Source: Deltaproteobacteria bacterium (GTDB lineage: Bacteria; Desulfobacterota; Desulfobaccia; Desulfobaccales; 0-14-0-80-60-11). From it: 64,000 nt of DNA. Positions 8,699 to 46,157 of this stretch are shown piece after piece. Numbering within the stretch: the stretch's first letter is position 1; the number at the start of each line of letters is the position of its first letter. The notes beneath the pieces were generated by a model that was given only the letters and a program-made list of their open reading frames with translations, had not been told where the DNA came from and made no database searches. The stretch covers positions 1,669 through 65,668 of the forward strand of contig JAUSOZ010000015.1 of the NCBI GenBank assembly GCA_030655955.1. The letters are read 5' to 3'. The translations under genes and the position numbers were made by a program.

Positions 8699-9217
8699 AT
8701 GATTCCCACTGGGCTTAAGACAAGGCTGAGCCTGAAGATCATGTTAGCGGTCCTCGGGGTGCTTGGTTTCCTGGTTCCCGAGGCTGCCCTGGCTACCACG
8801 CAGTTTTCGGACATCCTGTACCTTGATGGCCAGAAACATTCCCTGGATAGCCTCCCCCTGGAGACGTATTACGGCCCCGGGAATCCTCGTCCCAAGTTCC
8901 GGGCGCCCAACACCGCCACCTGGCGCGGCTACATCGCCACCTGGGAGATTGACCGGGGCGTCCTCCATTTAAAGGCCATCCGGGCCTGGACCGACCGCGG
9001 CGAGGTGGGGCTCCCGGAACTGTTTCCCGGCCGGAAAGGCCCGGTGGCCGCAACCTGGTTTACCGGCAAGCTCAAGGTCCCCCAGGGCAAGGTCATCAAA
9101 CCCGCGGTGCCCCATCCTATTTATGGGAAATACCTCATGATCACGGTGGAGAAGGGTAGGGTGGTCAACCAGGAGGTCATTGACAATCCCGGAGGCACTC
9201 GATCGCCGGGACGGTAA
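8699..9217 (+). CDS. Hypothetical secreted protein
   Basis: N-terminal signal-like segment LKIMLAVLGVLGFLVPEAALA and coding-like composition. No family recognised. Confidence 0.45.
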   Translation: MIPTGLKTRLSLKIMLAVLGVLGFLVPEAALATTQFSDILYLDGQKHSLDSLPLETYYGPGNPRPKFRAPNTATWRGYIATWEIDRGVLHLKAIRAWTDRGEVGLPELFPGRKGPVAATWFTGKLKVPQGKVIKPAVPHPIYGKYLMITVEKGRVVNQEVIDNPGGTRSPGR

Positions 9218-12150: not shown

Positions 12151-13785
12151 ATGCATATCGGCTCTTATTCCTACGACGATTTTATGCAACTGGTTAAGTC
12201 TTTCCATGGCAATGTGGCTCCCGGCGTCGTCATCGGCGGCATCATGGTCGAGGTGGCCCGGCGCCGTCTCCCGGCGGAGATCTTGTTTGACGCGGTCTGC
12301 GAAACCCGGAATTGTCTTCCCGACGCGGTCCAGCTTCTCACCCCGTGCACCATCGGCAACGGCTGGCTCAAGGTGATCAACGTGGGACGCTTCGCCCTCA
12401 GCCTTTACGATAAGTACGAGGGGAAAGGGGTGCGGGTCTTTCTGGACCCGGTGCAGGTGGCCGACTGGCCGGAAATTAATACCTGGTATCTCAAGCTCAA
12501 ACCCAAAAAGGAGCAGGCCCCGGCCCTGCTGCTGGAAGAAATCCGGCAGGCCGGGGCGGAAATCCTGGGATGGCAGCAAGTCCAAATCCGGCCCCAGTTT
12601 CTCGGCAAGCGCCACCGGGGCCGTATAGTCGTCTGCCCTCTGTGCCGGGAAGCCTATCCGGCCGCAGATGGCGGCATCTGCCGGGCCTGCCAGGGCGAGC
12701 CCCTTTATCTGGCTGATGGGAGGGAAGCAGAAGCGGCCTTTGAGGCCCCGGCGCTGCACTTGTTGCCGGTGGAGCAGGCGGTGGGCCACCGGGCCCTGCA
12801 CGATATGACCATGATCAACCCTGGGGCCAGTAAAGGCCCGGCCTTTAACAAGGGCCATATCATCGGGGTGGGGGACCTCTGCCGCTTGCAGCAGATGGGC
12901 CGGCGGCACCTCTATGTGATGACGGAAGATCAGGTCGGCCCCGAGTGGGTGCACGAGAATGAAGCCGCCCTGGCCTTTGCCCAGGCCATGGCTGGAGAAG
13001 GAGTCACCTTTAGCGAACCTCCCCGGGAAGGCAAGGTCAATCTGGTAGCCGGTCGGGACGGGCTCCTGGTGGTGGATGAACCTAGGCTGGAGAGCTTCAA
13101 CCTGGTGCCCGGGGTCATGTGCGCCTGCCGCCAGGGCTACTCGGTGCTCAGCCAGGGCCGGATGCTGGGCGGCACCAGGGCGATTCCCCTGTTTCTGCCC
13201 CGGGCCGATTTTCATAAGGCCATGGCCCTGTTGAGCGACGGGCCCCTGTTCAGCGTGCTCCCCCTGCGTCAACCCCGGGTCGGCATTCTGGTAACCGGCA
13301 CCGAGGTCTTCATGGGGCTGGTGGAGGATAAATTCGTCCCCATCATCAGCACCAAGGTGGAGAAATTCGGCGGTCAAGTGCTGAAATCCTTGATCGTGGC
13401 CGACGATCGCCGAGCCATCGGCCAAGGGGTGCAGGAACTGCTGGACTGCGGCATTGATCTTTTGGTGACCACCGCCGGGCTCTCCGTGGACCCCGATGAC
13501 GTTACCCGCCAGGGACTGGTGGACGCCGGCGCCACGGATATGCTGTATGGCGCCCCCATTTTGCCGGGGGCCATGACCTTGCTGGCCCATATCGGGAGCG
13601 TCCAGGTTATGGGGGTGCCGGCCTGCGCCCTCTTCTTCAAGACCACCAGTTTCGATCTCCTGCTGCCGCGCCTTTTGGCGGGCCTGGAAATCACCCGGCG
13701 CGATCTGGCCCGCCTGGCTAACGGCGCATTTTGTCTGGAGTGCAAGGTATGCACTTTTCCTCAGAAATGCCCCTTCGGGAAATAA
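12151..13785 (+). CDS. FmdE-domain / Zn-ribbon / MoeA-N-like / molybdopterin-binding (MoCF) domain fusion protein
   Basis: N-terminal FmdE motifs (FHGNVAPGVVIGG, DAVQLLTPCTIGNG). Zn-ribbon CPLCREAYPAADGGICRACQG. C-terminal MogA/MoaB-like domain (VGILVTGTEVF ... DLLVTTAGLSVDPDDVT ... ILPGAMT), ending with CLECKVCTFPQKC. Confidence 0.75.
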   Translation: MHIGSYSYDDFMQLVKSFHGNVAPGVVIGGIMVEVARRRLPAEILFDAVCETRNCLPDAVQLLTPCTIGNGWLKVINVGRFALSLYDKYEGKGVRVFLDPVQVADWPEINTWYLKLKPKKEQAPALLLEEIRQAGAEILGWQQVQIRPQFLGKRHRGRIVVCPLCREAYPAADGGICRACQGEPLYLADGREAEAAFEAPALHLLPVEQAVGHRALHDMTMINPGASKGPAFNKGHIIGVGDLCRLQQMGRRHLYVMTEDQVGPEWVHENEAALAFAQAMAGEGVTFSEPPREGKVNLVAGRDGLLVVDEPRLESFNLVPGVMCACRQGYSVLSQGRMLGGTRAIPLFLPRADFHKAMALLSDGPLFSVLPLRQPRVGILVTGTEVFMGLVEDKFVPIISTKVEKFGGQVLKSLIVADDRRAIGQGVQELLDCGIDLLVTTAGLSVDPDDVTRQGLVDAGATDMLYGAPILPGAMTLLAHIGSVQVMGVPACALFFKTTSFDLLLPRLLAGLEITRRDLARLANGAFCLECKVCTFPQKCPFGK

Positions 13786-23006: not shown

Positions 23007-23007
23007 A

Positions 23008-23055
23008 GTAGTCAGTGGTCAGTGGTCAGTAGCCAGTAGTCAGTTGTCAGTTGTC
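23008..23055. repeat. Tandem heptanucleotide array (GTCAGTG/GTCAGTA/GCCAGTA/GTCAGTT), abutting the P1 start codon
   Basis: gtcagtg gtcagtg gtcagta gccagta gtcagtt gtcagtt gtc. It begins 1-4 nt from the ATG (23006-23004, minus strand). It is the inverted complement of the array at 23116-23148. Confidence 0.85.
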
Positions 23056-23115: not shown

Positions 23116-23148
23116 AACTGACCACTGGCAACTGGCAACTGACTACTG
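23116..23148. repeat. Tandem heptanucleotide array (AACTGAC/CACTGGC/AACTGGC), overlapping the response-regulator stop codon
   Basis: aactgac cactggc aactggc aactgac tactg is the reverse complement of CAGTNGT-type units. It can pair with 23008-23055 across a ~60-nt spacer. Confidence 0.85.
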
Positions 23149-23547
23149 TTTTTTCAAGGCGGCCAGTTCCCCTTGCATGCGCTTCCACTCCAGGGCCCGC
23201 TTGATGGTGATGAGGATGGTCTCCTTGCGGAAGGGCTTGGTGATAAAATCGTAGGCGCCTTTCTGGATGGCCTCTTCGGCGGTCTCAATGGTGCCGTAGG
23301 CGGTAATGACAATAATGGGCATGGTAACGTCGATATTCTTGACGATGCCGATGAGGTCGATGCCATCCACCAGGGGCATTTTGAGATCGGTGACCACTAA
23401 GTCGTAATGACTATCCTGGAGCAATTTGCTCACTTCCAGGGGATTGTTGGTCGTGGTAACCTCATAGCCGGTCTTATCCATCAGGATAGTTTTCAGCAAT
23501 CTGAGCATATTGGGTTCATCGTCAACGACCAGTATCCGCTCCGGCAT
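23143..23547 (-). CDS. Single-domain (CheY-like) response regulator
   Basis: ILVVDDEP, LVVTDLKMP, VITAYG and DFITKPF. At 134 aa there is no output domain. Confidence 0.9.
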   Translation of the reverse strand: MPERILVVDDEPNMLRLLKTILMDKTGYEVTTTNNPLEVSKLLQDSHYDLVVTDLKMPLVDGIDLIGIVKNIDVTMPIIVITAYGTIETAEEAIQKGAYDFITKPFRKETILITIKRALEWKRMQGELAALKKQ

Positions 23548-23610: not shown

Positions 23611-25932
23611 TTACGAGATAACTGCGGTTTGATTCGGCGGGGCCTGTTCCAGGCCGTTCGCCTCGGCCTCGGGGCCGGAAATAATGGGGAGGTAAACGGT
23701 AAACGTGGTGCCATGCTTTCCGGGATATTCATCGGCGGGGTAACTGGTGAAGATGATGTTCCCGCCGAATTTGGTGATAATGCCGTAGCTCATGGACAGG
23801 CCCAGGCCGGTGCCTTTGCCGGTCTCCTTGGTGGTGAAGAAGGGGTCGAAGATCTTGGCCTGGGCCTCCCGGGGGATGCCGGCGCCGGTGTCGATAAATT
23901 CGATGGCGACGCGTTTGCCGTCGGGGCTGAGCGCGGTAAGGACCTTGAGGATCCCGCCCCCCGCCATGGCGTCGGCGGCATTGTTGACCAGATTGATGAA
24001 GACCTGCTGCAGTTCCGGGGGGTCACCCTTGACCCGGGGGAGGCCCGGGGCCAGGCTGGTTTCCAGGCGGATCTTTTTGGTCAGCAGGGTGTTCTTCACC
24101 ACGGCCAGGGTTTTTTCCAGGAGGCCGGAAACCTCGGCGCTGGTTTCGCTCACCTGGGGGATGCGGGCGAAGGTGAGGATGTTTTCGACGATTTTTTTGC
24201 ACCGGAGCCCTTCGTCCTCGATGACCTGGAGGGTTTCGTGGATCTCGGGCATGGACTCGGTCTGCTCCAGGAGGTGCTCGGTGAATCCCAGGATCACGGT
24301 CATGGGATTATTGATCTCATGGGCCACCCCCGCGGCCAGGGTGCCGATGGAGGCGAGCTTCTCCATGTTGATCATCCGGTCTTCAATGGCTTTGCGGCCG
24401 GTGATGTTCCGGGAAATGATCTCGTAGGCAAAGGTATCGCCGTGTTCATCTTTGATGCCCACGATGCTGGTGGAAAACCAGAATTCCTGGTCGCCGATGG
24501 ACACCGGGTGGCGCTTGCTTCTGACCCTGTTCGTCTCCTTGACTTCCCGGAGCCATTCCATGTGGAAGTCGGCGGATTTTTGATTGAAGATGTCGTTCAA
24601 GGTGCGCCCGACAAACTCCTGGGATGTCCCCTGGATGACGCCGCCGGTGGTTGCGGGCTTTACCGAGGATCGGGCGGTGGCGAAGAGGTTGGCGGCGTAG
24701 CGGTTGATGGACAGGACACGGCCGTCGGCGTCCACGGAGTAGATCAGGTCGGCGGCGTTTTCCACCAGGCCCTGATACCGGGCCTCTGATTTCTGCAACT
24801 TCTCCTTCTGGCGGTTGACCTCTTCTTCCAGGCTGGAAGAAAACTGCTGCTCGTAGCGGAAATTCAGCATGACGATGGTGCCGGACAGGACCACCAGGCC
24901 GATGATGACCTGGAGGTAGAACTGCCGGGTATAGAGGGTATGGATCACGCCTTCGACTTCGCTGGCCGGGGCCACCACCGCCACTGACCAGGAGGTGGCC
25001 GGTTTAGTCTCCTGGACCAGGTTTTGTTCTTCCAACTGTACCGGGGCATAGGCCATGAGCTTTTGAATCTCTCCCGCCATGCCGCGATGCCAGCCGGAGA
25101 TATAAGTGCCCCAGCCTTCTTTGCCGGCCAGCATTTTTTCGCGCTGAATCTGGTTGATGGCGTCGAAGGAGATGGCGGGCATCCGTTCTTTGCGCACCGT
25201 AAAGGCGTTCTTGCCGATGAAGTCGCGTTCCGGATGACTGAGAAATATGCCCTTGCTATCCATGATCCAGGCATAACCGGTTTTGCCGCTCTGAATACCC
25301 TGGGTAAACTTTTTGGCCAGGGCATGGGCATCGATATAAAACACCAGCACCCCGCTGAAAGCCCCGGAGGGGTGGGGATGGGTTTCGTCCACCGACATCT
25401 CATAGGTGGGCACGGCCATGACGAAGATGAGCCGGCCGACGTAATGGGGAATCTCGGTGGACACCGGCATCACCAGGACCTGGCCCTTGTGTTCCGGTTG
25501 GGCGGCCCAGGAGAGGAACGAGGTGTCCTTGAAGGAGCCGGTGGTGATCTGATCCACCCCCCGGGAGTCCATCTGAAAAGCCCGGTTGCCGTCGGCACTG
25601 ATACGCAGGATCTCCACCACGCCTTCTTCCCGGACGGAAGCCAGGGTGGCCCGCATGCGGTTGGCCCAGGACAGGGGCTCCAGGTATTGGATGGAAGGGG
25701 AGAAGTTGAGGGTGCTCAGTTCCCGTTTGAGGAAGTTGATATCCTGCTCCAGCAGGCTGGCGGTATATTTGGCCAGCACCAACTGCTGCTGGTTGAAGTC
25801 TTCCTTGACGATCTCCTTCATCTGGTTGGCGGACATGAGGCCCAGATAGATGCTGATCCCCAGCAGGGCGAAATTGACCGCCAACAATAAAGCCAGGGCG
25901 TAGCGGGAGGCGAGAAACGGGAAGCGGCGCAT
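23611..25932 (-). CDS. Sensor histidine kinase with periplasmic Cache-like domain, PAS, HisKA, HATPase
   Basis: TM1 (ALALLLAVNFALLGISIYLGL), a ~300-aa extracytoplasmic region with Cache-like features (GYAWIMDSKGIFLSHP) and TM2. These are followed by a PAS domain (YQGLVENAADLIYSVDADGRV), H-box AAGVAHEINNP, N-box LVNNAADAM, and G-boxes DTGAGI / GTGLGLS. Confidence 0.9.
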   Translation of the reverse strand: MRRFPFLASRYALALLLAVNFALLGISIYLGLMSANQMKEIVKEDFNQQQLVLAKYTASLLEQDINFLKRELSTLNFSPSIQYLEPLSWANRMRATLASVREEGVVEILRISADGNRAFQMDSRGVDQITTGSFKDTSFLSWAAQPEHKGQVLVMPVSTEIPHYVGRLIFVMAVPTYEMSVDETHPHPSGAFSGVLVFYIDAHALAKKFTQGIQSGKTGYAWIMDSKGIFLSHPERDFIGKNAFTVRKERMPAISFDAINQIQREKMLAGKEGWGTYISGWHRGMAGEIQKLMAYAPVQLEEQNLVQETKPATSWSVAVVAPASEVEGVIHTLYTRQFYLQVIIGLVVLSGTIVMLNFRYEQQFSSSLEEEVNRQKEKLQKSEARYQGLVENAADLIYSVDADGRVLSINRYAANLFATARSSVKPATTGGVIQGTSQEFVGRTLNDIFNQKSADFHMEWLREVKETNRVRSKRHPVSIGDQEFWFSTSIVGIKDEHGDTFAYEIISRNITGRKAIEDRMINMEKLASIGTLAAGVAHEINNPMTVILGFTEHLLEQTESMPEIHETLQVIEDEGLRCKKIVENILTFARIPQVSETSAEVSGLLEKTLAVVKNTLLTKKIRLETSLAPGLPRVKGDPPELQQVFINLVNNAADAMAGGGILKVLTALSPDGKRVAIEFIDTGAGIPREAQAKIFDPFFTTKETGKGTGLGLSMSYGIITKFGGNIIFTSYPADEYPGKHGTTFTVYLPIISGPEAEANGLEQAPPNQTAVIS

Positions 25933-25939
25933 AATTTTT

Positions 25940-28489
25940 CTATTTACCCACGTGTTCCTGCACGAAGTCCTTAATATACCATTCTACAATACTATCCGAA
26001 AACAGCACCATGTCCAGTTGTTTGGTGTAATGCGTGAGTTTACCCAGCAGGGTGAGCCGCTGGGCCATCTGCTCGGCGGGGTATTTGGCGAGACGGGCCT
26101 CGATGAGCTCGCCTTTGCGCCGGTGATTCAGGTGGAGGTGGTCGATGATGGCCTCGATGAGGCGGGCGCGGCGCTCCCGGCGCTCCGGGGTGGAGCCGCC
26201 GCCCCGGAACCCGAAGGTGAGGTAGTTGTCGTTCACCTGGTCCGAGACGTAGGCCTCCACCGTGGAGAGATGATACCCCAGGCGGATGCTGAAATTCATG
26301 TAATTTTTGGCGAGCACGACATAACTCTGGTCCCGCCAGGGGTCGGCGCCCTGGGCCACCTCGGCCTCGCCCTTGACAAAGACCGAGGACAGGCTCTTGA
26401 CCCCGGCGGGTGCAGCCTGGGCCCAGCGCATGGCGGTGAGGCCCTTCCAGAAGGCCTGGAAGGGGAGGGAGTCCACCTGTTCGGGTTTGACCTTGCGGCC
26501 CCAGCCCCTTTTCAGCACGCCGCCCAGATCCAGGATTCTGACCTTGATGGGCAGCCCGGAATCCAGGTCCACGACCTCGCCGGCGGTGTCGATTTCATTT
26601 TCCGCCAGGCGGAACATTTCCCGCATGGAATATTCGTGGGCGTAGCGCACGATGTCATGGATGGTGCGGCAGTGAGACGGTGAGAACGTGGCGTCATCTT
26701 CGGGATTGATCAGGTTCAAGGGGACGATCTTTTGCACCACATTCTTTAAGGTTTGAAACACCGGGCTGTCAGCCAGGTCATTTTTTTTATGCCGCAGTTC
26801 CAGGAGTTCCGGGATCAGGCCGGCGTAGACGTTATTATAGTTGGCGTCCACGGTGACCACTTGTCCGGGTTGCAGGATTTGGGTGGCGTTGCCGGTATTG
26901 AGAATGGTGGGGACCTGGAATTCCCGGGCCAGGAGGGCCATGTGGCCGGTGGGGCTGCCGGCGTCGGTAAGGATGGCGGCGGTCTGGGGCATGACGGTGA
27001 CATATTTGGTTGAGGTGTGGCGGGCCACCAGGACGCTGCCGGCGGGGAAGTTCTTCAGATCCGCATCCCGGCGCACCAGGAACACCGGACCGGCCCCGAC
27101 GCCGCGGCAGGCTACGGTGCCGTGGTCAATGAGCACGGCATGCTCCTTCAGGGTCCGGGCCGGCGGCTCCGGGGTCTTGGGGGGCGGGAGCTGCAGCGGC
27201 CGGCTCTGGAGGAGCCAGAGGGCCCCGGTTTCATCCAGGGCCCACTCCACGTCCTGGGGTTTGGCGAAATGGGCCTCCAGGGTGGCGGCCCAGTGCACCA
27301 GTTGGGTAATCTGGCCCTGGTCCAGGCAGGGGGCGCTGACCAGCTCCGGCGGCACCGGCACCTCGGCTTCGCCGCCCTGGGGCCGGCAGACCAGCATGAC
27401 CTCCTTGGGGGGAATCGTTTGGGCCAGGACCTGGCCCGGCGGCTGGTAGGCCACCAGGTAGTGATCCGGGTTGATGACGCCGCCTACGGCGTATCTGCCC
27501 AAGCCCCAGACGGCGTTGATGAAGGCAGCCTCCTGGCCGGCGTCATCGGGCTGGCGGGTGAAGAGCACCCCGCTGGCCCGGGCCTGGATCATGGGCATCA
27601 CCACCACGCCCATGGCCATCTCTTCTTCCTTGAACCCCTTGTTCTTGTAGTAAAACAGGGCGCGAGGAGTGAACAGGCTGGCGACGATATCCTTATAGCG
27701 GCTGCTGAGGGATTCGGGGGCCACGTTGAGATAGGTGGCGTACTGGCCGGCGAAGGTCAGGGTGAGGTCCTCGCCCACGGCGGAAGAGCGCATGGCCACC
27801 CGGGGCCGGCGGGGCTCCCGGGCCGCCAGGCGCTCGTAGGCCTCGGTGATGGCCGCCTCCAGTTCCGGGGGTACTTGGGCCGCGAGGATCATCTGCTTTA
27901 AGTCCTCGCTGACCCGGGCCAGGCTGTCCAGATCATCCAGGCGCCAGTGCCCCAGCAATTCCGTCAGCCGGGCCGCCAGGTGATTGTGATCCAGGAAAAC
28001 CTTGTAGGCGTGGGTGGAAATGGCAAAGCCGGCGGGGACCGGCAGGCCCACGCGGTTTTTGACCTCCCCCAGATTGGCGTTTTTGCCCCCCACCACGTCA
28101 CCCATGGTGGCGTTGATGGCCTCGAAGTCAATCACCAGGGGGGCTACGGGGATCTCGCGGCGGTGGGTCAGGACTGCCTCCACCTCCCGGCTGATGCGGG
28201 CCAGGGCCTCGGACAGCCCTTGATAGCGGTTGCCCCCCAAGCCATTGAGGGCATCGACCAACTTGGCCGTTTCCTGGTGGAGTTGACTGACCGCGGCGCG
28301 GATGTATTGGAGGTCAAACAGGTAGTCGCCCGACAGCTTCTCTTCCATGTCGGCCATCAGGGTCAGGACCTGGTTGTTGGCGGAGAGCAAGGCCTGAAAG
28401 TGGGTGTATTTTTCCGCCAGCTCCGCCTGGGTTTTACCCGGCGTGGCCTTGGTAAGACGTTGCCAGGCGCGTTTCAGGGTGGTCACCAT
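25940..28489 (-). CDS. Dikinase-like protein P2 (paralog of P1/P3)
   Basis: Same architecture: GGKNANLGEVKNRVGLPVPAGF, MRSSAVGEDLTLTFAGQ, PQDVEWAL..LWLLQSRP and swivel GSPTGHMALLAREFQVPTIL. The C-terminal domain has HCRTIHDIVRY, LDLGG, RLGYHL, NDNYLTFGFRGGGS and RRERRARL. The stop lies 7 nt before the HK start. ATG at 28489 (after GGGGAG) is preferred over the TTG at 28507. Confidence 0.85.
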   Translation of the reverse strand: MVTTLKRAWQRLTKATPGKTQAELAEKYTHFQALLSANNQVLTLMADMEEKLSGDYLFDLQYIRAAVSQLHQETAKLVDALNGLGGNRYQGLSEALARISREVEAVLTHRREIPVAPLVIDFEAINATMGDVVGGKNANLGEVKNRVGLPVPAGFAISTHAYKVFLDHNHLAARLTELLGHWRLDDLDSLARVSEDLKQMILAAQVPPELEAAITEAYERLAAREPRRPRVAMRSSAVGEDLTLTFAGQYATYLNVAPESLSSRYKDIVASLFTPRALFYYKNKGFKEEEMAMGVVVMPMIQARASGVLFTRQPDDAGQEAAFINAVWGLGRYAVGGVINPDHYLVAYQPPGQVLAQTIPPKEVMLVCRPQGGEAEVPVPPELVSAPCLDQGQITQLVHWAATLEAHFAKPQDVEWALDETGALWLLQSRPLQLPPPKTPEPPARTLKEHAVLIDHGTVACRGVGAGPVFLVRRDADLKNFPAGSVLVARHTSTKYVTVMPQTAAILTDAGSPTGHMALLAREFQVPTILNTGNATQILQPGQVVTVDANYNNVYAGLIPELLELRHKKNDLADSPVFQTLKNVVQKIVPLNLINPEDDATFSPSHCRTIHDIVRYAHEYSMREMFRLAENEIDTAGEVVDLDSGLPIKVRILDLGGVLKRGWGRKVKPEQVDSLPFQAFWKGLTAMRWAQAAPAGVKSLSSVFVKGEAEVAQGADPWRDQSYVVLAKNYMNFSIRLGYHLSTVEAYVSDQVNDNYLTFGFRGGGSTPERRERRARLIEAIIDHLHLNHRRKGELIEARLAKYPAEQMAQRLTLLGKLTHYTKQLDMVLFSDSIVEWYIKDFVQEHVGK

Positions 28490-28624
28490 CGCTCCCCATT
28501 GCCGCAAATATAGACAGGACTGCCATTGGCATCAAACAATCAAAAATTATATCAAATTTTAGCTCAATTGCCAGTCCGCTCCGGCTGGCGCCCGGGCGTA
28601 TTTTGGGGCAAGGAACGGGGAGAG

Positions 28625-28657
28625 AGTAGTCAGTAGCCGGTGGGCAGTGGTCAGTGC
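28625..28657. repeat. Degenerate CAGTNGY heptamer array
   Basis: agtagt cagtagc cggtggg cagtggt cagtgct. A partially complementary array gactatc gaccact gccagtt lies at 28785-28810. Confidence 0.6.
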
Positions 28658-28682: not shown

Positions 28683-28768
28683 GTAGGGAGCGTCTCACGC
28701 GCCATTCGTGGTGCGTAAGACGCACCCTACGAAGGGAAACGGCCTTTTTGAACGCAACTCGGCATCAG
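28683..28768. repeat. Composite repeat: long family-C hairpin (GTAGGGAGCGTCTCACGC..GCGTAAGACGCACCCTAC) + TTTTTGAACGCAACTCGGCATCAG module
   Basis: The C module recurs at 31783 and 43829. The TTGAACGCAACTCGG.ATCAG module recurs inverted at 31855-31881 and as a truncated TTTTTGAACG at 43856. Confidence 0.7.
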
Positions 28769-28857
28769 TGTTGCAGAAATCTCCGACTATCGACCACTGC
28801 CAGTTATACTTCACCCCCTGAACCCACTTATTATTCAGAGCGGAAAAAAGATTACTT

Positions 28858-28979
28858 CCCCCTCACCCTAACCCTCTCCCCCATTGGGGGAGAGGGGAAA
28901 AGATGGAACCGATTTAAGGCGCTGCGATCATTAAACCCGGAGTTTAACCTACTCCCTCTCCCCCGCCGGGGGAGAGGGG
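28858..28979. repeat. Two family-A hairpins (CCCTCTCCCC-loop-GGGGAGAGGG)
   Basis: cccctcaccctaaccctctcccccattgggggagagggg (28858-28896) and ccctctcccccgccgggggagagggg (28954-28979). Related copies lie at 20119-20170, 37939-37962 and 41257-41295. Confidence 0.8.
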
Positions 28980-31582: not shown

Positions 31583-31782
31583 GACAGAACTCCTCGAAGG
31601 TCGCCCCTTGTTACATTTTTCACAAAATCTTGGTTACTTTTTTAAGGGAATAAGCTTGAAAAGTCAAGCTAATAATAGGGCAGGGCCTGGTTTTCCCTGG
31701 GACAGAAAAATGATTAAGTGTAATGCTTCACAAGCCCCGGGCAGGTTATCGATCCGGTCCATGGCCGGCGGATGGAATAGCT

Positions 31783-31804
31783 GGTGCGTAGGACGCACCC
31801 TACG
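31783..31804. repeat. Family-C hairpin GGTGCGTAGGACGCACCCTACG
   Basis: Identical 22-mer at 43829-43850. One-base variant at 28709-28730. Confidence 0.8.
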
Positions 31805-31854: not shown

Positions 31855-32106
31855 CTGATACCGAGTTGCGTTCAACAGGCAATTATTTGCAGACGCAGGC
31901 TTTACCGTGAAACTTCAAATCCCCCTCAATCCCCCTTTAAAAAAGGGGGACTTTAAGGAAGCCGCAGTCTTTTCCCCCCTTTTCTAAAGGGGGGGTAGGG
32001 GGGATTTTCATCCCCGGGAGTGACCAACCCCGAGGTCATGGACGTTTCGCTTGCGCCAGCACAGGCAAGACGCATCTGTCGCCAATTGATTGCGACTTGG
32101 TATCAG
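31855..32106. mobile_element. MITE-like 252-bp composite palindrome
   Basis: Imperfect ~27-bp terminal inverted repeats: ctgataccgagttgcgttcaacaggca (31855-31881) and tgccaattgattgcgacttggtatcag (32080-32106). They enclose an inverted pair of family-D modules (31917-31955 and 31971-32008). No coding capacity. Confidence 0.4.
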
Positions 32107-38046: not shown

Positions 38047-38913
38047 ATGTCTGCTGCCAGCCCTTCAGCCCCTTTCCCCAAAATCCTGGTGTGTACCGAC
38101 GGCTCCCCTGACAGTGAAGGGGCCATCAGCGCCGCGCTTAATCTGGCCAAGACCACGGGAAGCACGGTCTTTCTCCTGGAAGTGCTGTTCTACCTGGCGG
38201 GATATGAGCTGCAGGCGCCGGATACCCTGGCGCCGCCAATAGTCAATATGGAATTGATGCAGGCCCAGGAGACCGCGGTGAGGGAGCGGTTAGAGGCCCG
38301 GAAGGCTGAGGCTGCCGGGGAGGGGATAACCCTGGAGCCCCGGGTCCGGACCGGGTCCTCGGCCTATGAGGGTATTTTGGAGGAAGTCGGTGAATCCCAG
38401 CCCGACCTGATTATCATGGGCCGCCACGGCTATACCGGTCTGACCCGGTTGCTCATGGGCAGTGTCACCGCCCGGGTCATCGGCCACAGCCCCTGCGACG
38501 TTCTGGTGGTGCCCCGGGAAGTTCCCTTAAGTTTTAAAAGCCTCCTGGTCGCCAGCGACGGCTCGCCGTTCAGCGAGGCCGCCTGGACCAAAGCGCTCCT
38601 GTTGGCCAAGACCATGGGCAGCGCCCTGATCGGGGTGGCGGTGGCCGCCTCCGACCGGGATATCCCGGCGGCGACGCAAGTGGTCCGGGGCCTGGAGGCG
38701 GCCGCCAGCGAGCAGGGGATCGCCCTGGACACCATGATTCCCATGGGCCGGCCGGAGGAGGGCATCGTCAAGGCGGCGGATTTCAAGGGCGCCAGCCTCA
38801 TCATCGTGGGCAGCCACGGCCGCACCGGCTTGAAGCGGCTCCTCATGGGTTCGGTGGCGGAACGGGTCATCGGCCACGCCAAATGCCCGGTGCTGGTGGT
38901 GAAGAAGAAGTGA
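38047..38913 (+). CDS. Tandem universal stress protein (two USP domains), second gene
   Basis: The ATG at 38047 is preceded by GAGGAGAAG. Repeats: ILVCTDGS ... DLIIMGRHGYTGLTRLLMGSVTARVIGHSPCDVLVV and LLVASDGS ... SLIIVGSHGRTGLKRLLMGSVAERVIGHAKCPVLVV. Confidence 0.9.
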   Translation: MSAASPSAPFPKILVCTDGSPDSEGAISAALNLAKTTGSTVFLLEVLFYLAGYELQAPDTLAPPIVNMELMQAQETAVRERLEARKAEAAGEGITLEPRVRTGSSAYEGILEEVGESQPDLIIMGRHGYTGLTRLLMGSVTARVIGHSPCDVLVVPREVPLSFKSLLVASDGSPFSEAAWTKALLLAKTMGSALIGVAVAASDRDIPAATQVVRGLEAAASEQGIALDTMIPMGRPEEGIVKAADFKGASLIIVGSHGRTGLKRLLMGSVAERVIGHAKCPVLVVKKK

Positions 38914-38938
38914 GCAGTGAGCAGTAAGCAGTGAGCAG
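38910..38938. repeat. Tandem heptamer array (GTGAGCA/GTAAGCA) starting at the USP stop codon
   Basis: gtgagca gtgagca gtaagca gtgagca g, with the TGA stop at 38911-38913 inside the first unit. The 22-mer GTGAGCAGTAAGCAGTGAGCAG (38917-38938) is identical to 43150-43171. Confidence 0.9.
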
Positions 38939-41256: not shown

Positions 41257-41410
41257 CCCCTCACCCCAGCCCTCTCCCCTCCCAGGGGAGAGGGGGTTTT
41301 GGCTGCTACCGGTGTCAGACTGCGGCACCCTCGGCAAGAGCGAATGTCAAAAGTATTTTCCATAGCGGAATCATTATCATCCCCCCTACCCCCCCTGGAG
41401 AAAAGGGGCG
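41257..41410. repeat. Family-A hairpin (41257-41295) and family-D element (41376-41410)
   Basis: cccctcaccccagccctctcccctcccaggggagaggggg and atcatcccccctaccccccctggagaaaaggggcg. Confidence 0.7.
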
Positions 41411-41596
41411 AAATATTCTCTGGGAAATGCGAGAAGTTTCACATATTCGGGTTGACAGGCGCCGCAAAAGTAAATAATCTCCCCTAGTCCATTAAACCTA
41501 GTCCATGAAAATCGTTCCAGCTTTTTGGCCCGGGAGTTGTGCCGGGCCGGGCGGGGTTATGCGGGGGCGAGGGGTTACGATAAAAAGGAGTTACCT

Positions 41597-43150
41597 ATGA
41601 AGACCGTGGCCGAGAAGATCCGGGAGTTGAAGGAGAAGGAGGAGCAGATCAAGGGGATGGGTGGTGCCAAGGCTGTGGAGAAGCAGCGGGCCAGCGGCAA
41701 GCTCACCGCCCGGGAGCGGTTGGATTTGTTCTTTGACCCGGGGACCTTTCGGGAGACCGATATTTTTGTGACGCACCGCTGCGTCAACTTCGGCATGGAG
41801 AAGGTGGAGATCCCGGCGGACGGGGTGGTCACCGGCTTTGGGAAGGTGAACAATCGCCCGGTGTTCGCCTTTGCCCAGGACTTCACCAGCCGCGCCGGGT
41901 CGCTGGGGGAGATGCACAGCAAGAAGATCTGCAAGGTCATGGACCTGGCCTTGAAGGCCGGGGTGCCGTTTGTGGGGTTCAACGACTCCGGCGGGGCCCG
42001 CATCCAGGAGGGCGTGGATTCTTTGAGCGCCTACGGGCAGATTTTCTATAGGAACGCCATCGCCAGCGGCGTCATTCCCCAGGTCTCCGCCATCATGGGA
42101 CCCACCGCCGGGGGCGCGGTCTACTCGCCGGCCATGACGGATTTCATCTTCATGGTGAAGAACACGTCGTACATGTTCATCACCGGCCCCGACGTCATCA
42201 AGAGCGTCACCGGGGAGGAGATCAGCTTCGAGGCCCTGGGCGGCGCCATGGCCCACAACACCAAGTCCGGGGTGGCCCACTTCGCCTGCGAGTCCGACAG
42301 TGATGCCATCGACCAGATCAAGCGCCTGTTAAGCTACCTGCCCAACAATAACATGGAAGACCCGCCGCTTACGCCCACCGCCGACCCTGCCGGCCGGGAG
42401 GCGCCGGAGTTGGACGCCATTATCCCGGACAGCGCCGGGCAATCTTATGACATGCACGACGTCATCCGTGCCATCGTGGACGACGGCGAGTTCTTCGAGC
42501 CCCACGCCCATTTCGCCGGCAACATGGTGGTGGCCCTGGCGCGTATGGGCGGCCGGCCCATCGGCATCATCGCCAACAACCCCAGGGTGCTGGCGGGCTG
42601 CCTGGACTGCGACGCGGCGGACAAGGCCACGCGGTTCATCCGCTTCTGCGACGCCTTCAACATTCCGCTCTTAACCATCGCCGACGTGCCCGGGTACCTG
42701 CCGGGGAGCGACCAGGAGTGGCAGGGCATCATCCGGCACGGGGCCAAGCTGTTGTGGTGCTACTCCGAGGCCACGGTGCCCAAGATCACCCTGGTGACCC
42801 GGAAGGACTACGGCGGCTCGTACCTGGCCATGTGCTCCCAGGACCTGGGGGCCGACATGGTCATCGCCTGGCCCACGGCTGAGATTGCGGTGATGGGGGC
42901 GGGGGGTGCGGCCAACGTCATCTTCCGGAAAGAGATCAAGGCGGCGGCGGACCCGGTGGCCAAGCGGGCCGAGATCATCGACAATTACGAGACCCTGCTC
43001 TACAACCCGTACATTGCCGCATCGCGAGGCTTTGTGGACCAGGTGATCACGCCCCGGGAGACCAGGCCGCGGCTCATCGAGGCGTTGGAGATCCTGAGCA
43101 CCAAGCGGGAGACGTTGCCGGCCAAGAAGCACGGCAATATTCCGGTTTAG
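41597..43150 (+). CDS. Methylmalonyl-CoA/propionyl-CoA carboxyltransferase (12S-type) subunit
   Basis: The ATG at 41597 is preceded by AAGGAG. Motifs: GKLTARERLDLFFDPGTF, FAQDFTSRAGSLGEMH, GGARIQEG, MGPTAGGAVYSPA, GQSYDMHDVI, PGYLPG..QEW.GIIRHGAKLL. Confidence 0.9.
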   Translation: MKTVAEKIRELKEKEEQIKGMGGAKAVEKQRASGKLTARERLDLFFDPGTFRETDIFVTHRCVNFGMEKVEIPADGVVTGFGKVNNRPVFAFAQDFTSRAGSLGEMHSKKICKVMDLALKAGVPFVGFNDSGGARIQEGVDSLSAYGQIFYRNAIASGVIPQVSAIMGPTAGGAVYSPAMTDFIFMVKNTSYMFITGPDVIKSVTGEEISFEALGGAMAHNTKSGVAHFACESDSDAIDQIKRLLSYLPNNNMEDPPLTPTADPAGREAPELDAIIPDSAGQSYDMHDVIRAIVDDGEFFEPHAHFAGNMVVALARMGGRPIGIIANNPRVLAGCLDCDAADKATRFIRFCDAFNIPLLTIADVPGYLPGSDQEWQGIIRHGAKLLWCYSEATVPKITLVTRKDYGGSYLAMCSQDLGADMVIAWPTAEIAVMGAGGAANVIFRKEIKAAADPVAKRAEIIDNYETLLYNPYIAASRGFVDQVITPRETRPRLIEALEILSTKRETLPAKKHGNIPV

Positions 43151-43177
43151 TGAGCAGTAAGCAGTGAGCAGTAAAAG
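43150..43177. repeat. Tandem heptamer array (GTGAGCA/GTAAGCA) starting at the carboxyltransferase stop codon
   Basis: ta|gtgagca gtaagca gtgagca gtaaaag. It shares an identical 22-mer with 38917-38938. Confidence 0.9.
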
Positions 43178-43195
43178 AGTGGTGATTGCAGGTTT

Positions 43196-43237
43196 TTGAA
43201 CCTTGAATCTTGAACTTTGAACTTTGAACTTTGAACT
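43196..43237. repeat. Tandem heptamer array (TTGAACY x6)
   Basis: ttgaacc ttgaatc ttgaact ttgaact ttgaact ttgaact. It ends 12 nt before the ATG at 43250. Confidence 0.9.
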
Positions 43238-43249
43238 GACGAGGTGGAG

Positions 43250-43447
43250 ATGCCGATCGCACCTAAGATTTTAGCGGCCATCAGTGGGGCCATTGCGGCC
43301 TATATGGCCGACGAGGAGGCCTGCCAGATGGCGGCGGCGGGTTTGGCGGCCCCGGCCCCGGGCCCGCCCATAAACCTCTGGGGAATGTCCGGGCGTTCCG
43401 AGGCCATGCAGCTCAGGCTCTTGATGCAGCGGCGGAGTTTGCGGTAG
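43250..43447 (+). CDS. Small Ala-rich hypothetical protein between the two transcarboxylase genes
   Basis: ATG preceded by GAGGTGGAG. 65 aa: MPIAPKILAAISGAIAAYMADEE ... PINLWGMSGRSEAMQLRLLMQR. It is reminiscent of small accessory subunits of biotin decarboxylase/transcarboxylase complexes, but the family is not recognised with certainty. Confidence 0.4.
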   Translation: MPIAPKILAAISGAIAAYMADEEACQMAAAGLAAPAPGPPINLWGMSGRSEAMQLRLLMQRRSLR

Positions 43448-43466
43448 TCGCCCAGGTGCGCGTCCA

Positions 43467-43528
43467 GGGCGGACACACGGGTCCGCCCCTACGAAAATCC
43501 CCCCTGACCCCCTTGAGAAAAGGGGGGG
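43467..43528. repeat. Family-B variant hairpin (GGGCGGACacacggGTCCGCCCCTACG) fused to a family-D element
   Basis: gggcggacacacgggtccgcccctacgaaaatcccccctgacccccttgagaaaaggggggg. Confidence 0.65.
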
Positions 43529-43604
43529 ATGGTGGGCCGGGGCCGCAAGGTTTCCCGGTGAAACGGGGGATTGATACCTCATGAGCCATCAAAGGACTAT
43601 TTTT

Positions 43605-43683
43605 GTCATTCTGAGTGCAGCGAAGAATCTCTTCTTTAAAGCCGCCGAGATTCGTAACGAAGCTGCGCTCCGTTCAGAATGAC
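43605..43683. repeat. 79-bp inverted-repeat element (family F: GTCATTCTGAG..GCAGCGAAG ... CTGCGC..TCAGAATGAC)
   Basis: gtcattctgagtgcagcgaagaatctcttctttaaagccgccgagattcgtaacgaagctgcgctccgttcagaatgac. A half-copy lies at 46107-46157. Confidence 0.75.
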
Positions 43684-43828
43684 ATGAATTTTCATAGGTT
43701 ATTGACTGCAACTTTATATGAGGGGCTTTAACCAGCAGCCTTGACAGTTATTCATGGGCCGGTGGCCCACCCGTAAAACATGCAAATATATGTGGGCGGG
43801 CATTGCCCGCCGATTCGGCTGACTAATT

Positions 43829-43850
43829 GGTGCGTAGGACGCACCCTACG
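43829..43850. repeat. Family-C hairpin GGTGCGTAGGACGCACCCTACG
   Basis: Identical to 31783-31804. It is followed by aaaaaCTTTTTGAACG, as at 28741-28752. Confidence 0.8.
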
Positions 43851-43866
43851 AAAAACTTTTTGAACG

Positions 43867-43901
43867 GAAAACGGAAAACCGAAAACGGAAAACTGAAAAA
43901 A
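43867..43901. repeat. Tandem heptamer array (GAAAACN x5)
   Basis: gaaaacg gaaaacc gaaaacg gaaaact gaaaaaa. Confidence 0.9.
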
Positions 43902-43915
43902 GCGGTTTGTTTTAA

Positions 43916-43950
43916 AGCTGACAGCTGACGGCTGACAGCTGAAAGCTGAC
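43916..43950. repeat. Tandem heptamer array (AGCTGAC x5)
   Basis: agctgac agctgac ggctgac agctgaa agctgac. It ends 5 nt before the AAGGAG RBS of the 43967 gene. Confidence 0.9.
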
Positions 43951-43966
43951 GACAAAGGAGTCATCC

Positions 43967-45898
43967 ATGGCCGGAAAAAATCCCATCAAATTCACCGATA
44001 CCACCTTTAGGGACGGTCACCAGTCGCTGCTGGCCACCCGCATGCGGTCCGAGGACATCATTCCCTTCATGGCGCGCATGGACCAGATGGGCTACTTTGC
44101 CATCGAGGTTTGGGGGGGCGCCACCTTCGACACCACCCACCGTTTCCTGGGGGACGACCCCTGGGAGCGCATCCGCACCATCAAGGGGATCCTGAAGAAG
44201 ACCCCCACCATGATGCTGTTGCGGGGCCAGAACCTGGTGGGATACCGGAACTACGCCGACGATCTCACCTACCGGTTCGTGCGCTATGCCGCCGAGGCCG
44301 GGGTGGACATCTTCCGGGTCTTCGACGCGCTGAACGACATGCGCAACTGGGAAGTGGCGGTCAAGGCCCTGATGGACGCCAAAAAGGCCGGCCTCATGGC
44401 CCACTTCCAGGCGGCGGTGTGCTATTCGCTGACCCAGCGGCGCATGGGCGGGCCCATCTTCAACCTGGACTACTACGTCAATTTTGCCAAGAAGTCCGAG
44501 GACATGGGGGCCGACTCGGTGGTCTTGAAGGACATGGCCGGCATGTGCTCGCCGAATGACGCCTACGCCATCATCAAGGGGATGAAGGATACCATCAAGA
44601 TCCCGGTGGAGTTCCACACCCACTACACCTCGGGCTCGGGCTCCATGAGCTACCTGAAGGCCATCGAGGCGGGCGTGGACGTGCTGGACACCTGCCTGTC
44701 GCCCTTTGCGCTGCGGACCTCCCAGCCGGCCATCGAGCCGCTCATCGTGGCGGTGGAGCAGACCGACCGGGAAACCGACATGAACCTGGCGGGCTTGATC
44801 GCGATCGGCTACGACCTGGAGAAGGTGGCGGTGAAGTACCGGGACCTGCTGGACACCTCCAAGATGGCCCAGATCGACACCGGGGTGCTGCTGCACCAGA
44901 TCCCCGGGGGCATGTACTCCAACCTGGTGAACCAGCTCAAAGAGTTGGACGCCTTGGACCGGATCCACGAGGTGATGGCGGACCTGCCCCAGACCCGGCA
45001 GGAGCTGGGGTTCCCGCCGCTGGTGACCCCCACCAGCCAGATTGTGGGCATCCAGGCGGTGATGAACGTGCTGTTCGGGCGCTACAAGAAGGTGACGGCC
45101 GAGACCCAGGGCCTGGCCTACGGCCTCTACGGCAAGACCCCGGCCCCCATGGACCTGGAGGTGCAGAAGCACATCCTCAAGGGCTACGAGCGGGGCGAGA
45201 CGCCCACCACCGGGCGGCCCGGGGACATCCTGGCGCCGGAGTGGGACAAGGCGGTGGCGGACACCAAGGCCATTGCCAAGGACGAAGGCGACATCCTGAT
45301 CTACGCCCTGTACCCCACCACGGGCATGCGTTTCCTCAAGTGGAAGTATAACCTGGAGCCCATCCCCGCCGAAGTCAAGGGCAAGACTCTGGAGCAGATC
45401 GCCCTGGAAGACGGGGTTTATCTGACCATCAAGCAGAAAAAACTTTTCGCCAAGGTGAAGGAGTATCTGGATACGCTGTCCCAGGCGGCGCCGGAAAAGG
45501 GCCCGGGGACGCGGGGCTTCAACGTCTTCGTGGACGGGCAGTACTACAACGTCGAGGTGGAGTGCACCTCCGGGGCGCCGGTGATCACCAATGTGGCCCC
45601 GGCACGTGGCACAGGCGTCTCGCCTGTGGTCGCGGCGGCCCCGGCTCCGGCCCCCCGGCCGGCGGCAGCCCCGGCGGCGGGGGACGCGCCCCTCAAGGCC
45701 CCCATGCCCGGGATGATCATCAGCTATGCGGTGAAGGTGGGTGATGCGGTGAAAACCGGCGACCTGATCTGCGTGCTCGAGGCCATGAAGATGCAGAACA
45801 GCCTCCCGGCGCCCGCAAGCGGAGTGGTGAAGGCCATCAACTTCGAGCCCGGCGCCAGCGTCGCCAAAGACGCCACCATCCTGGTGATCGGCACCTAA
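43967..45898 (+). CDS. Transcarboxylase 5S-type (pyruvate/oxaloacetate carboxyltransferase, HMGL-like TIM barrel) subunit fused to a biotin carboxyl-carrier domain
   Basis: FTDTTFRDGHQSLLATRM and EVWGGATFD (OadA/PycB/5S family). An Ala/Pro linker (AAAPAPAPRPAAAPAAG) precedes the biotinyl domain with CVLEAMKMQN. Confidence 0.9.
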   Translation: MAGKNPIKFTDTTFRDGHQSLLATRMRSEDIIPFMARMDQMGYFAIEVWGGATFDTTHRFLGDDPWERIRTIKGILKKTPTMMLLRGQNLVGYRNYADDLTYRFVRYAAEAGVDIFRVFDALNDMRNWEVAVKALMDAKKAGLMAHFQAAVCYSLTQRRMGGPIFNLDYYVNFAKKSEDMGADSVVLKDMAGMCSPNDAYAIIKGMKDTIKIPVEFHTHYTSGSGSMSYLKAIEAGVDVLDTCLSPFALRTSQPAIEPLIVAVEQTDRETDMNLAGLIAIGYDLEKVAVKYRDLLDTSKMAQIDTGVLLHQIPGGMYSNLVNQLKELDALDRIHEVMADLPQTRQELGFPPLVTPTSQIVGIQAVMNVLFGRYKKVTAETQGLAYGLYGKTPAPMDLEVQKHILKGYERGETPTTGRPGDILAPEWDKAVADTKAIAKDEGDILIYALYPTTGMRFLKWKYNLEPIPAEVKGKTLEQIALEDGVYLTIKQKKLFAKVKEYLDTLSQAAPEKGPGTRGFNVFVDGQYYNVEVECTSGAPVITNVAPARGTGVSPVVAAAPAPAPRPAAAPAAGDAPLKAPMPGMIISYAVKVGDAVKTGDLICVLEAMKMQNSLPAPASGVVKAINFEPGASVAKDATILVIGT

Positions 45899-45904
45899 AC
45901 AATC

Positions 45905-45933
45905 GTAGGGGCGGGTTTAAAACCCGCCCCTAC
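45905..45933. repeat. Family-B hairpin GTAGGGGCGGGtttaaaaCCCGCCCCTAC
   Basis: Perfect 11-bp stem, 7 nt after the 5S-BCCP stop. Confidence 0.75.
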
Positions 45934-45973
45934 AGGCCCAATACCCGCACGACATCCTTTCATAGACCAAAAA

Positions 45974-46006
45974 GACCGGGGAGAAGCATCCCCCGGTCTT
46001 TTTTTT
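45974..46006 (+). terminator. Rho-independent terminator of the transcarboxylase operon
   Basis: GACCGGGG-agaagcat-CCCCGGTC followed by eight T residues. Confidence 0.8.
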
Positions 46007-46106
46007 AGCTGGAAGCCTGAGCTTATGGCTGGTTTTGCTGGTAGTAACCGCGGAAGCCAGGCCCATTTTCTGAGAAGAAGTTGCGGTCATAAATAATAAT
46101 ATTCAT

Positions 46107-46157
46107 GTCATTCTGGGCGGAACGCAGCGGAGTGAAGCATCTCGGCGGCTTTAAAGC
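46107..46157. repeat. Family-F half element
   Basis: gtcattctgggcggaacgcagcggagtgaagcatctcggcggctttaaagcgg aligns to the reverse complement of the right arm of 43605-43683, including tctcggcggctttaaag. Confidence 0.65.

Follow-up and report, generated by a model that had tools for sequence, protein, structure and literature searches.

Tandem arrays of heptanucleotides have been described repeatedly in bacteria, and their function and origin have been open questions since 1990. In the account of Mrazek 2007 given in PMC4679880 and PMC4692102, heptanucleotides form the dominant class of long simple sequence repeats (SSRs) in many bacteria, with slippage proposed as their source. Arrays of this already described class occur in a 64-kb stretch of contig JAUSOZ010000015.1 (hereafter the window, meaning the whole stretch of DNA that was analysed), where four of them, lying within positions 43150-43950 between the genes of a carboxyltransferase-type operon, are the subject of this analysis.

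Several heptamer systems are available for comparison. The GGGAATC/GGGGAYT heptamers of Xanthomonas and Nostoc form intergenic arrays of approximately four units, which favour the spacers that separate aligned open reading frames (ORFs) (Rehm et al. 2015, PMC4692102). The G-rich version of the Xanthomonas GGGAATC arrays is found in sense orientation at most 50 bp from a stop codon or overlapping it, and the complement is found 5' of start codons; 70-75 convergent inverted pairs are present per genome, most arrays are transcribed, and both length and sequence vary extensively between close relatives at the same sites (PMC4692102). In Geobacter metallireducens, MTYCTGA arrays of five units make up eight pairs, whose members lie on opposite strands and are separated by varying distances (for instance between proB and proA); 49 four-unit GGACCGG elements occur as well, and these heptamers have been interpreted as putative binding sites for a global regulator or for IHF/HU (Aklujkar et al. 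2009, PMC2700814). Arrays of two to six TAACTGA units occur in marine Beggiatoaceae, some Cyanobacteria and Bacteroidetes, a few nucleotides 5' of start codons, in one orientation and often without a canonical Shine-Dalgarno (SD) sequence; 169 sets are direct and one is indirect, and the stop-codon content of the unit limits overlap with genes (MacGregor 2015, PMC4679880). Three heptanucleotides of Calothrix PCC 7601 are cited in PMC4692102, and (TTTTGAA)3-4 arrays near start codons of Nostoc affect reporter output. In Haemophilus influenzae, the transcribed (ATCTTTC)n repeat of hmw1A forms one arm of a hairpin in the 5' untranslated region (5'-UTR) which is cleaved by RNase III, with copy number affecting expression and RNase III required for repeat-number change (Rapun-Araiz et al. 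2025, PMC12721329). The preliminary description of the window regarded tandem heptamers outside the cyanobacteria as unexpected, a view that cannot be upheld given the dominance of heptamers among long SSRs in many bacteria, as relayed from Mrazek 2007, and the published arrays of Geobacter and Xanthomonas.

The elementary element in the window and in the orthologous loci of its relatives is an inverted pair of heptamer arrays with a variable filler between the arms. The G-richer arm (CAGYNRN-type, AAGTTCA or CGGTTTT units) abuts the stop codon of the upstream gene, and the reverse-complement arm (NYNRCTG-type, TTTGAAC or GAAAACN units) abuts the SD sequence or start codon of the downstream gene. 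The interpretation favoured here, with about as much doubt as confidence, is that these polar pairs and orphan arms represent a lineage-specific bloom of the known class of heptamer arrays, generated by slippage and conversion at the DNA level, kept within bounds by selection acting on the neighbouring genes, and with effects on the mRNA as by-products.

Reverse-complementary 5' and 3' arrays, including TTAGCAG/CTAACTG, AGTGAGC/GCTCACT, AGCTRTC/GCTGACA, AAGTTCA/CTTTGAA and CAGTAGT/ACTACTG, are present in many spacers, and 7/20 pairs of arrays sharing a spacer are complementary at six or more of the seven positions, as against 8 % for random pairings. In predicted RNA folds the arms pair into stems of 25-50 bp which close the whole spacer (z -3.5 to -10), with the upstream stop codon at the stem base and the SD sequence just 3' of the stem. 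The window contains such a pair on the minus strand, where a CAGTAGT/CAGTTGC array at 23116-23148 (5' arm; 4.7 copies) and an AGTAGTC array at 23007-23055 (3' arm, reading ACAACTG/ACCACTG/ACTACTG on the minus strand; 7.0 copies) are mutual reverse complements. The predicted fold of 23160-22995 reaches -68.7 kcal/mol (z -6.67), a value matched by 0/200 shuffles. A degenerate ACTG-type 3' arm at 28625-28657 (minus strand), seen in the raw sequence, faces an eroded 5' partner (CAGTGGTCGATAGTCGG) at ~28782-28798 on the same strand.

The four arrays at 43150-43950 comprise an AGTAAGC/AGTGAGC array (43149-43174; 3.7 copies), a TTTGAAC array (43195-43237; 6.1 copies), an AACGGAA array, equivalent to GAAAACN (43863-43899; 5.3 copies), and an AGCTGAC array (43916-43950; 5.0 copies), all on the plus strand and with copy numbers, here as elsewhere, from Tandem Repeats Finder. 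No complementary partner scoring above shuffled queries was found for any of them in 41400-46100, and the spacer at 43141-43262 folds no better than its shuffles (z +0.82). The self-fold of the TTTGAAC array amounts to 0.0 kcal/mol and the AGTGAGC and GAAAACN arrays are likewise essentially without self-structure; the AGCTGAC array self-pairs via CAGCTG palindromes (-14.1 kcal/mol; local fold z -3.08). Partners are present in other loci, with AGTGAGC paired with GCTCACT in L005, L022, L038, L108 and the phage locus L208, the TTTGAAC position paired with an AAGTTCA arm in L110, and arrays orthologous to AGCTGAC preceded by a 5' AGCTRTC partner in L003, L085 and L094. Because none of the four is paired here and their partners occur in relatives, they are read as orphaned or re-assorted arms, the partners of which were lost or replaced.

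Tandem Repeats Finder recovered these four arrays, which can be considered real as had been claimed. Altogether the window holds eight period-7 arrays. The arrays given in the preliminary description were all found, to which an AGTGAGC array at 38909-38938 (plus strand; 4.3 copies) must be added, and the reverse complementarity of the arrays at 23007 and 23116 had been overlooked. Likewise, the count of five different units is literally correct, but three of these (GTGAGCA/GTAAGCA, CAGTNGT and AGCTGAC) have a common CAG core. At a score of at least 11, an own scan based on match/mismatch scoring returned six period-7 arrays and between zero and one array for each of the other periods from 4 to 12, with approximately no period-7 arrays in the dinucleotide shuffles of the window (n=20), and the phased motif CAGTNRNCAGTNR occurs 13 times where 0.24 occurrences are expected.

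The host, a sulfate-reducer-like bacterium, belongs on the basis of its protein matches to a Desulfobaccales-like lineage of metagenome-assembled genomes (MAGs). The 5S protein encoded downstream of the arrays has its best matches among Desulfobaccales and Syntrophobacterales MAGs in a genome collection (79-89 % identity), and reaches 96-98 % amino acid identity with metagenome contigs. The best coding DNA identity to any relative is ~93 %, with the relatives compared spanning 82-93 %, and exact-match look-ups of three window proteins gave no sequence from the same species. Period-7 arrays occur at 128/Mb in 296 kb of clade sequence vs 1.6/Mb in the orthologous loci of other phyla (1.89 Mb), the majority of the clade arrays belonging to one operon, the orthologous copies of which are not independent. 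In the sequence analysed, which comprised 64 kb from the source genome plus some 230 kb from relatives, the density lies at ~94-128/Mb. Period 7 accounts for 38 arrays in the clade, with at most nine for any other period; the strong enrichment of period 7, on whose genome-wide absence the preliminary description would have abandoned its proposal, was thus observed on all reachable sequence (window and clade).

The operon around the four arrays is of the methylmalonyl-CoA carboxyltransferase type and consists of a carboxyltransferase gene of the mmdA type (end at 43150), a 65-amino acid ORF (43250-43447) and a 5S/OadA-type subunit gene (43967-45898) encoding a fused biotinyl domain; other arrays in the window neighbour a universal stress protein (Usp) gene and phosphoenolpyruvate (PEP) synthase-like genes. 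The AGTGAGC/AGTAAGC array at 43149, of the 5'-arm type, begins inside the TAG stop codon (43148-43150) of the carboxyltransferase gene. The TTTGAAC array, of the 3'-arm type, stops 12 nt 5' of the ATG at 43250 and directly 5' of the SD sequence GAGGTGGAG, the GAAAACN array (43863-43899) is situated in the 525-nt spacer 5' of the 5S subunit gene, and the AGCTGAC array stops 16 nt 5' of the ATG at 43967, directly 5' of the SD sequence AAGGAG. Furthermore, the 38909 array provides the TGA stop codon (38911-38913) of the Usp gene, and the first unit of the minus-strand array at 23148-23116 holds the TAG stop codon (23143-23145) of a response-regulator gene, so that three arrays in the window overlap stop codons (38911-38913, 43148-43150 and 23143-23145 minus) by 2-5 nt. 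The minus-strand array at 23055-23007 directly abuts the ATG at 23006 of a PEP synthase-like gene, which has no SD sequence; this start is supported by homology to a paralog which begins at residue 3. For several arrays in the window the distance from array end to start codon is 12-17 nt, just 5' of the SD sequence. The earlier remark that arrays end close to ribosome-binding sites, start codons or stop codons is thus borne out, as is the statement that all arrays are intergenic, with 0/49 arrays lying inside genes called by a rough codon-usage gene caller across 296 kb of clade sequence (81 % coding).

Stops within the unit itself explain how some arrays take up the stop codon: AGTGAGC, AGTAAGC, TTAGCAG and CAGTAGY provide stops in all three frames, and AAGTTCA, AGGTTTC, AGCGGTC, AGCTRTC and CAGTGGY provide none. 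A function of the after-stop arrays as three-frame stops was considered and rejected, as only about half of such units qualify. In annotation, stop codons and SD-less start codons adjoining such arrays should be accepted as real. The 65-amino acid ORF between the arrays (43250-43447, plus strand; MPIAPKILAAISGAIAAYMADEEA...LRLLMQRRSLR) is conserved in all ~23 relatives and matches no Pfam or NCBIfam family; its product presumably serves the carboxyltransferase/decarboxylase complex as a small subunit. The two PEP synthase-like proteins, encoded on the minus strand at 20436-23006 and 25940-28507, are paralogs with PEP-synthase/pyruvate phosphate dikinase (PPDK) N-terminal domains which share 44 % identity over the N-terminal 200 amino acids and score below the equivalog cut-offs. 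The region between them encodes a histidine kinase with Cache and PAS domains (23611-25932) and a response regulator of a single domain (23143-23547).

The same operon spacers can be compared in about twenty relatives. About two-thirds of 51 arrays hug a gene boundary, starting 0-13 nt past a stop codon or ending 10-25 nt before a start codon, and the first unit in relatives often includes a TAG stop codon (for example, TAGCAGT..., TAGCCGT... and TAGTGAGC....). Close relatives differ in unit, copy number and partner within identical orthologous spacers. For example, L081 (96 % amino acid and 93 % nucleotide identity) has a TTAGCAG/CTAACTG pair in place of the GAAAACN and AGCTGAC arrays of the window. 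At least eight unrelated unit families coexist in the lineage, replacing each other at one site, and the GAAAACN unit is found directly 5' of the SD sequence in L083, L084, L141, L111 and L005 (3682). GCTAACT, GCTGACC, GCTGACT and GCTGACA intermediates occur at one orthologous array, which argues for point mutation followed by homogenisation and against insertional replacement. Arrays are absent from the 17-160 nt spacers of L004, L072, L109 and L112, which are distant members, and nearly absent from those of L001; the operon therefore does not need them.

Two further features of array surroundings were observed. A short T-run after a small hairpin ('...ggtttttc') is often situated just 5' of the 3' arm (L081, L083, both spacers of L094, and L085; 43188-43196 in the window), an arrangement similar to a weak intrinsic terminator around which the long-range stem closes. 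At 6091-6123 of L038, the entire interval separating two convergent genes is occupied by a CTGCTTA/CTGCTCA array, at distances of 3 and 5 nt from the two stop codons.

Arrays were also sought in IMG/VR contigs, where a scan for CAGT phased at 7 nt and a control scan for GACT phased at 7 nt returned at least 120 loci each. All results below refer to the matches listed for CAGT. These loci lack nucleotide similarity to the clade, for which reason shared ancestry of the array-rich contigs was rejected. They have a median GC content of 0.585, and the array density reaches 22 per 10 kb in some of them. A CAGT-type array followed within 300 nt by an ACTG-type array was found 38 times vs 4 times in the reverse order (18 loci), and among 51 complementary pairs of any unit, G exceeds C in the first arm of 37 and C exceeds G in 9 (p = 4e-5). 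The arm closest to the gene end mostly begins 1-24 nt past the stop codon. Pairs cannot reveal a rule of transcription sense because an inverted pair reads alike on both strands, but orphans can, and they show a modest bias, orphan CAGT-type arrays after stop codons lying in sense orientation in 38 cases vs 20 (p = 0.025). One of the loci, L208 (IMGVR_UViG_3300033405_000065), is a genuine phage region in which terminase and portal domains were recognised, with 60 % GC and 14 period-7 arrays in 13.6 kb. The arrays, noted at 1461-1661 and 8726-8814, include AGTGAGC/AGTAAGC...GCTCACT pairs between the terminase and portal genes, which share the ending 'CAGTAAA(A)G' with the array in the window. 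It is possible that phages such as L208 served as vehicles for the spread of the arrays.

Under the interpretation of a lineage-specific bloom, replication slippage would make the arrays grow, shrink and change their units, with homogenisation running along the array. The complementarity of the two arms would be kept by a strand-symmetric process at the DNA level, such as arm-to-arm conversion or template switching, and the transcript fold would not be what selection maintains in the arms. Evidence for this comes from the arm mismatches on the sense strand, among which G.U (44) and A.C (41) are equally represented (p = 0.83; clade and listed IMG/VR matches), with a split of 21:19 in the clade and 23:22 in the independent contigs. 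Selection on RNA pairing, for which a predominance of G.U among the transition mismatches of the sense strand would be the signature, thus left no such trace, and the near equality implies a strand-symmetric cause at the DNA level or arms that are too young for filtering. Purifying selection would only confine the arrays to the gaps between genes, which would account both for arrays that extend precisely to stop codons and SD sequences and for the absorption of a stop codon by a unit that contains one. Since the spacers are intra-operonic, paired arms would form long mRNA stems and orphan A/U-rich arms would form unstructured leaders. Array turnover probably disturbs intercistronic processing and translation, which would be a side effect and not a maintained function.

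A number of observations weigh against this interpretation. Slippage or conversion alone would neither predict nor account for the fixed polarity of the arms (38 vs 4; 37 vs 9), and the modest sense bias of the orphan arrays hints at a constraint at the level of transcript or translation. Arrays persist in streamlined phage genomes, and units from a limited repertoire turn up again and again across unlinked loci and different genomes as well as in a phage. By analogy, the functional heptamer hairpin of hmw1A may also count on this side. To these must be added the crudeness of the gene calls and the concentration of most clade arrays in a single operon, the orthologous copies of which are not independent.

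It is possible, though rather unlikely, that the arrays are maintained RNA modules, in which the stem would bring the stop codon next to the SD sequence or ATG and act as an RNase III stalk, mRNA stabiliser or device of translational coupling, with orphan A/U-rich arrays providing unstructured leaders of a standby or enhancer kind 5' of the SD sequence. The predicted stems of 25-50 bp (z to -10), which close whole spacers with the stop codon at the base and the SD sequence just 3', would suit such a role, as would the array at 23007 adjoining an ATG without SD sequence, the structureless TTTGAAC and GAAAACN arrays which always lie in sense orientation just 5' of the SD sequence, and the bias of the orphans. 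The H. influenzae hmw hairpin with RNase III provides a precedent, and deletion of the Nostoc heptamers altered reporter output. Such a role is, however, difficult to reconcile with the G.U and A.C counts on the sense strand and with an operon that functions with array-free spacers of 17-60 nt in L004, L072, L109 and L112. Moreover, pairs are often broken or mismatched, for example at 43150-43950, and Rfam at its gathering threshold yielded no match in the window.

The polarity might instead be inherent to the elements. According to this proposal, which appears unlikely, inverted heptamer pairs would form one cross-phylum class, comprising the arrays of Desulfobaccales, Xanthomonas, Geobacter, Beggiatoaceae, cyanobacteria and phages, with an inherent polarity that places the G-rich or CAGT arm after the stop codon and the C-rich or ACTG arm before the start codon. 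A dedicated mechanism or factor acting at the DNA level would keep the arms complementary, and phages would carry the pairs from lineage to lineage, in place of independent origins by polymerase slippage in each.

There is a still smaller chance that the arrays are bound by an oligomeric protein which attaches to DNA or RNA and covers ~7 nt, with polarity reflecting dimer symmetry. The proposal made for Geobacter would suggest a nucleoid protein or global regulator as candidate, and the one made for the Beggiatoaceae a cold-shock or S1-type protein. Fixed arm polarity and a recurrent, limited set of units are consistent with such binding, which was put forward by the authors of PMC2700814 and PMC4679880, but the interchange of at least eight unrelated unit families at one site is hard to combine with sequence-specific recognition.

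Mobile elements of the miniature inverted-repeat transposable element (MITE) or REPIN type, with the heptamer arrays as terminal inverted repeats, insertion between stop codon and SD sequence and a transposase or phages as agents of spread, are an improbable source. While the polarity resembles that of terminal inverted repeats, presence or absence varies among close relatives, a real phage carries the same units and other palindromes similar to repetitive extragenic palindromic (REP) elements are nested in the same spacers, the fillers match at orthologous positions only, so that there is no multicopy interior. Target-site duplications are not visible in the window pair or in the spacer sequences of the relatives, copy number differs between arms, and units grade into each other at one site, as expected of evolution in place. 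A MITE with conserved interior was rejected for the further reason that the multicopy matches within the spacers belong to the other REP-like palindromes.

These REP-like families are distinct from the heptamers. A palindrome with 27-nt arms (ATTTTTGTCATTCTGAGTGCAGCGAAG ... CTGCGCTCCGTTCAGAATGACATGAAT) is located at 43599-43689, with a partial copy at 46101-46156 and similar copies in L082 (5499-5597), L005 and the Chloroflexota locus L015. A small intergenic palindrome (GGTGCGTARGACGCACCCTACGAA), which often adjoins heptamer arrays, is present at 28709-28733, 31782-31804 and 43828-43852, as well as in L084, L141 and L082. The multicopy intergenic family AAATCCCCCCTG(A/C)CCCCCTTTG..AAAGGGGGGA...TTTAGGGGGATTT occurs at 43490-43535 and 31916-32007 and in L003, L005, L082, L084 and L110, and several relatives have it enclosed by heptamer arms. 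Palindromes of a similar kind (TCCCCTCTCCCCC..GGGGGAGAGGG) were noted at 28872-28896 and 28954-28978.

The suggestion in the preliminary description that copy-number change, by rotating the helical phase through approximately two-thirds of a turn with each unit, could tune the geometry of promoters or ribosome-binding sites is highly improbable, as is the phase-variable contingency locus to which this would amount. Although copy number varies between relatives and heptamer SSRs control hmw1A in H. influenzae, the arrays at 43150-43950 are intra-operonic and separate a stop codon from the SD sequence that follows it, not promoter elements from one another, a scan limited to sigma-70 sites found no promoter- or terminator-like site in 42900-44100, relatives run the operon with array-free spacers of 17-60 nt, the flanking genes belong to central metabolism and do not encode surface antigens or virulence factors, and the hmw mechanism is an RNA hairpin with RNase III and not DNA phasing.

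The window and its relatives add an uncultivated anaerobic lineage with dense arrays to those in which heptamer arrays have been described. Approximately twenty orthologous spacers display the life cycle of the arrays, from empty spacer to complementary pair, unit replacement and orphan arm, and the arm-polarity rule is reproduced in unrelated contigs and in a phage. That G.U mismatches are not in excess in the arms speaks against the popular view of them as conserved RNA stems. No new mechanism is revealed and the lineage is experimentally intractable, hence the practical impact is modest.

When set beside the known systems, the arrays resemble each in some respects and coincide with none. 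Enterobacterial REP elements and bacterial interspersed mosaic elements (BIMEs) are hairpin-forming, transcribed, extragenic sequences which often lie just past stop codons in operons and are patchily distributed among relatives, and REPs are conserved imperfect palindromes of ~35 bp. The pairs are likewise extragenic, hairpin-forming and patchy, but they are built of tandem heptamers instead of ~35-bp palindromes. In 1990, Mazel and co-workers reportedly described several heptanucleotide units of short tandemly repeated repetitive (STRR) sequences dispersed in the non-coding DNA of cyanobacteria. The comparison with STRR elements in the preliminary description is apt insofar as several tandem heptamer units occur within one genome in non-coding DNA. 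It fails with regard to the units themselves, as trimers of the canonical STRR1-3 units, which we take to be CCCCAGT, TTGGTCA and CAACAGT, were absent from the window at up to three mismatches, and the host is not cyanobacterial. More generally, none of the published heptamer units was found in the window, and the literature searched contained no report of such arrays in Desulfobaccales or Syntrophobacterales.

The hmw1A system of H. influenzae is similar in that a transcribed heptamer array forms one arm of a long hairpin upstream of a gene. It differs in that its other arm is a non-repeat G-rich sequence and a single virulence gene, with a demonstrated effect of copy number on expression, is concerned; the arrays here are intercistronic. 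The Nostoc TTTTGAA unit is one base per unit removed from the CTTTGAA of the window. The unit of the TAACTGA system, read as ATAACTG, is one base from the CTAACTG 3' arm of the clade and identical in orientation. Further points in common are an array (23007) adjoining the SD-less ATG at 23006 and ACTG-type arms preceding start codons; the arrays differ in their many units and frequent inverted pairs, and TAACTGA itself is absent from the window. With G. metallireducens they share a 'deltaproteobacterial' genome, opposite-strand pairs of about five units and a CTG/CAG-containing unit, although the exact MTYCTGA and GGACCGG units are absent from the window. A G-rich heptamer array of the Xanthomonas/Nostoc G-quadruplex type (GATTCGGGATTGGGGATTAGGGATTGGG) was observed in an unrelated phylum, at 13741-13774 of the Anaerolineae MAG locus L040. 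The units of the window are without G-tracts, such that no G-quadruplex is possible, belong to many families instead of one, and are found in a Desulfobaccales-like host. They nevertheless parallel the Xanthomonas GGGAATC arrays in the stop-overlapping, G-richer sense arm, the complement before start codons, the inverted pairs and the variation between relatives.

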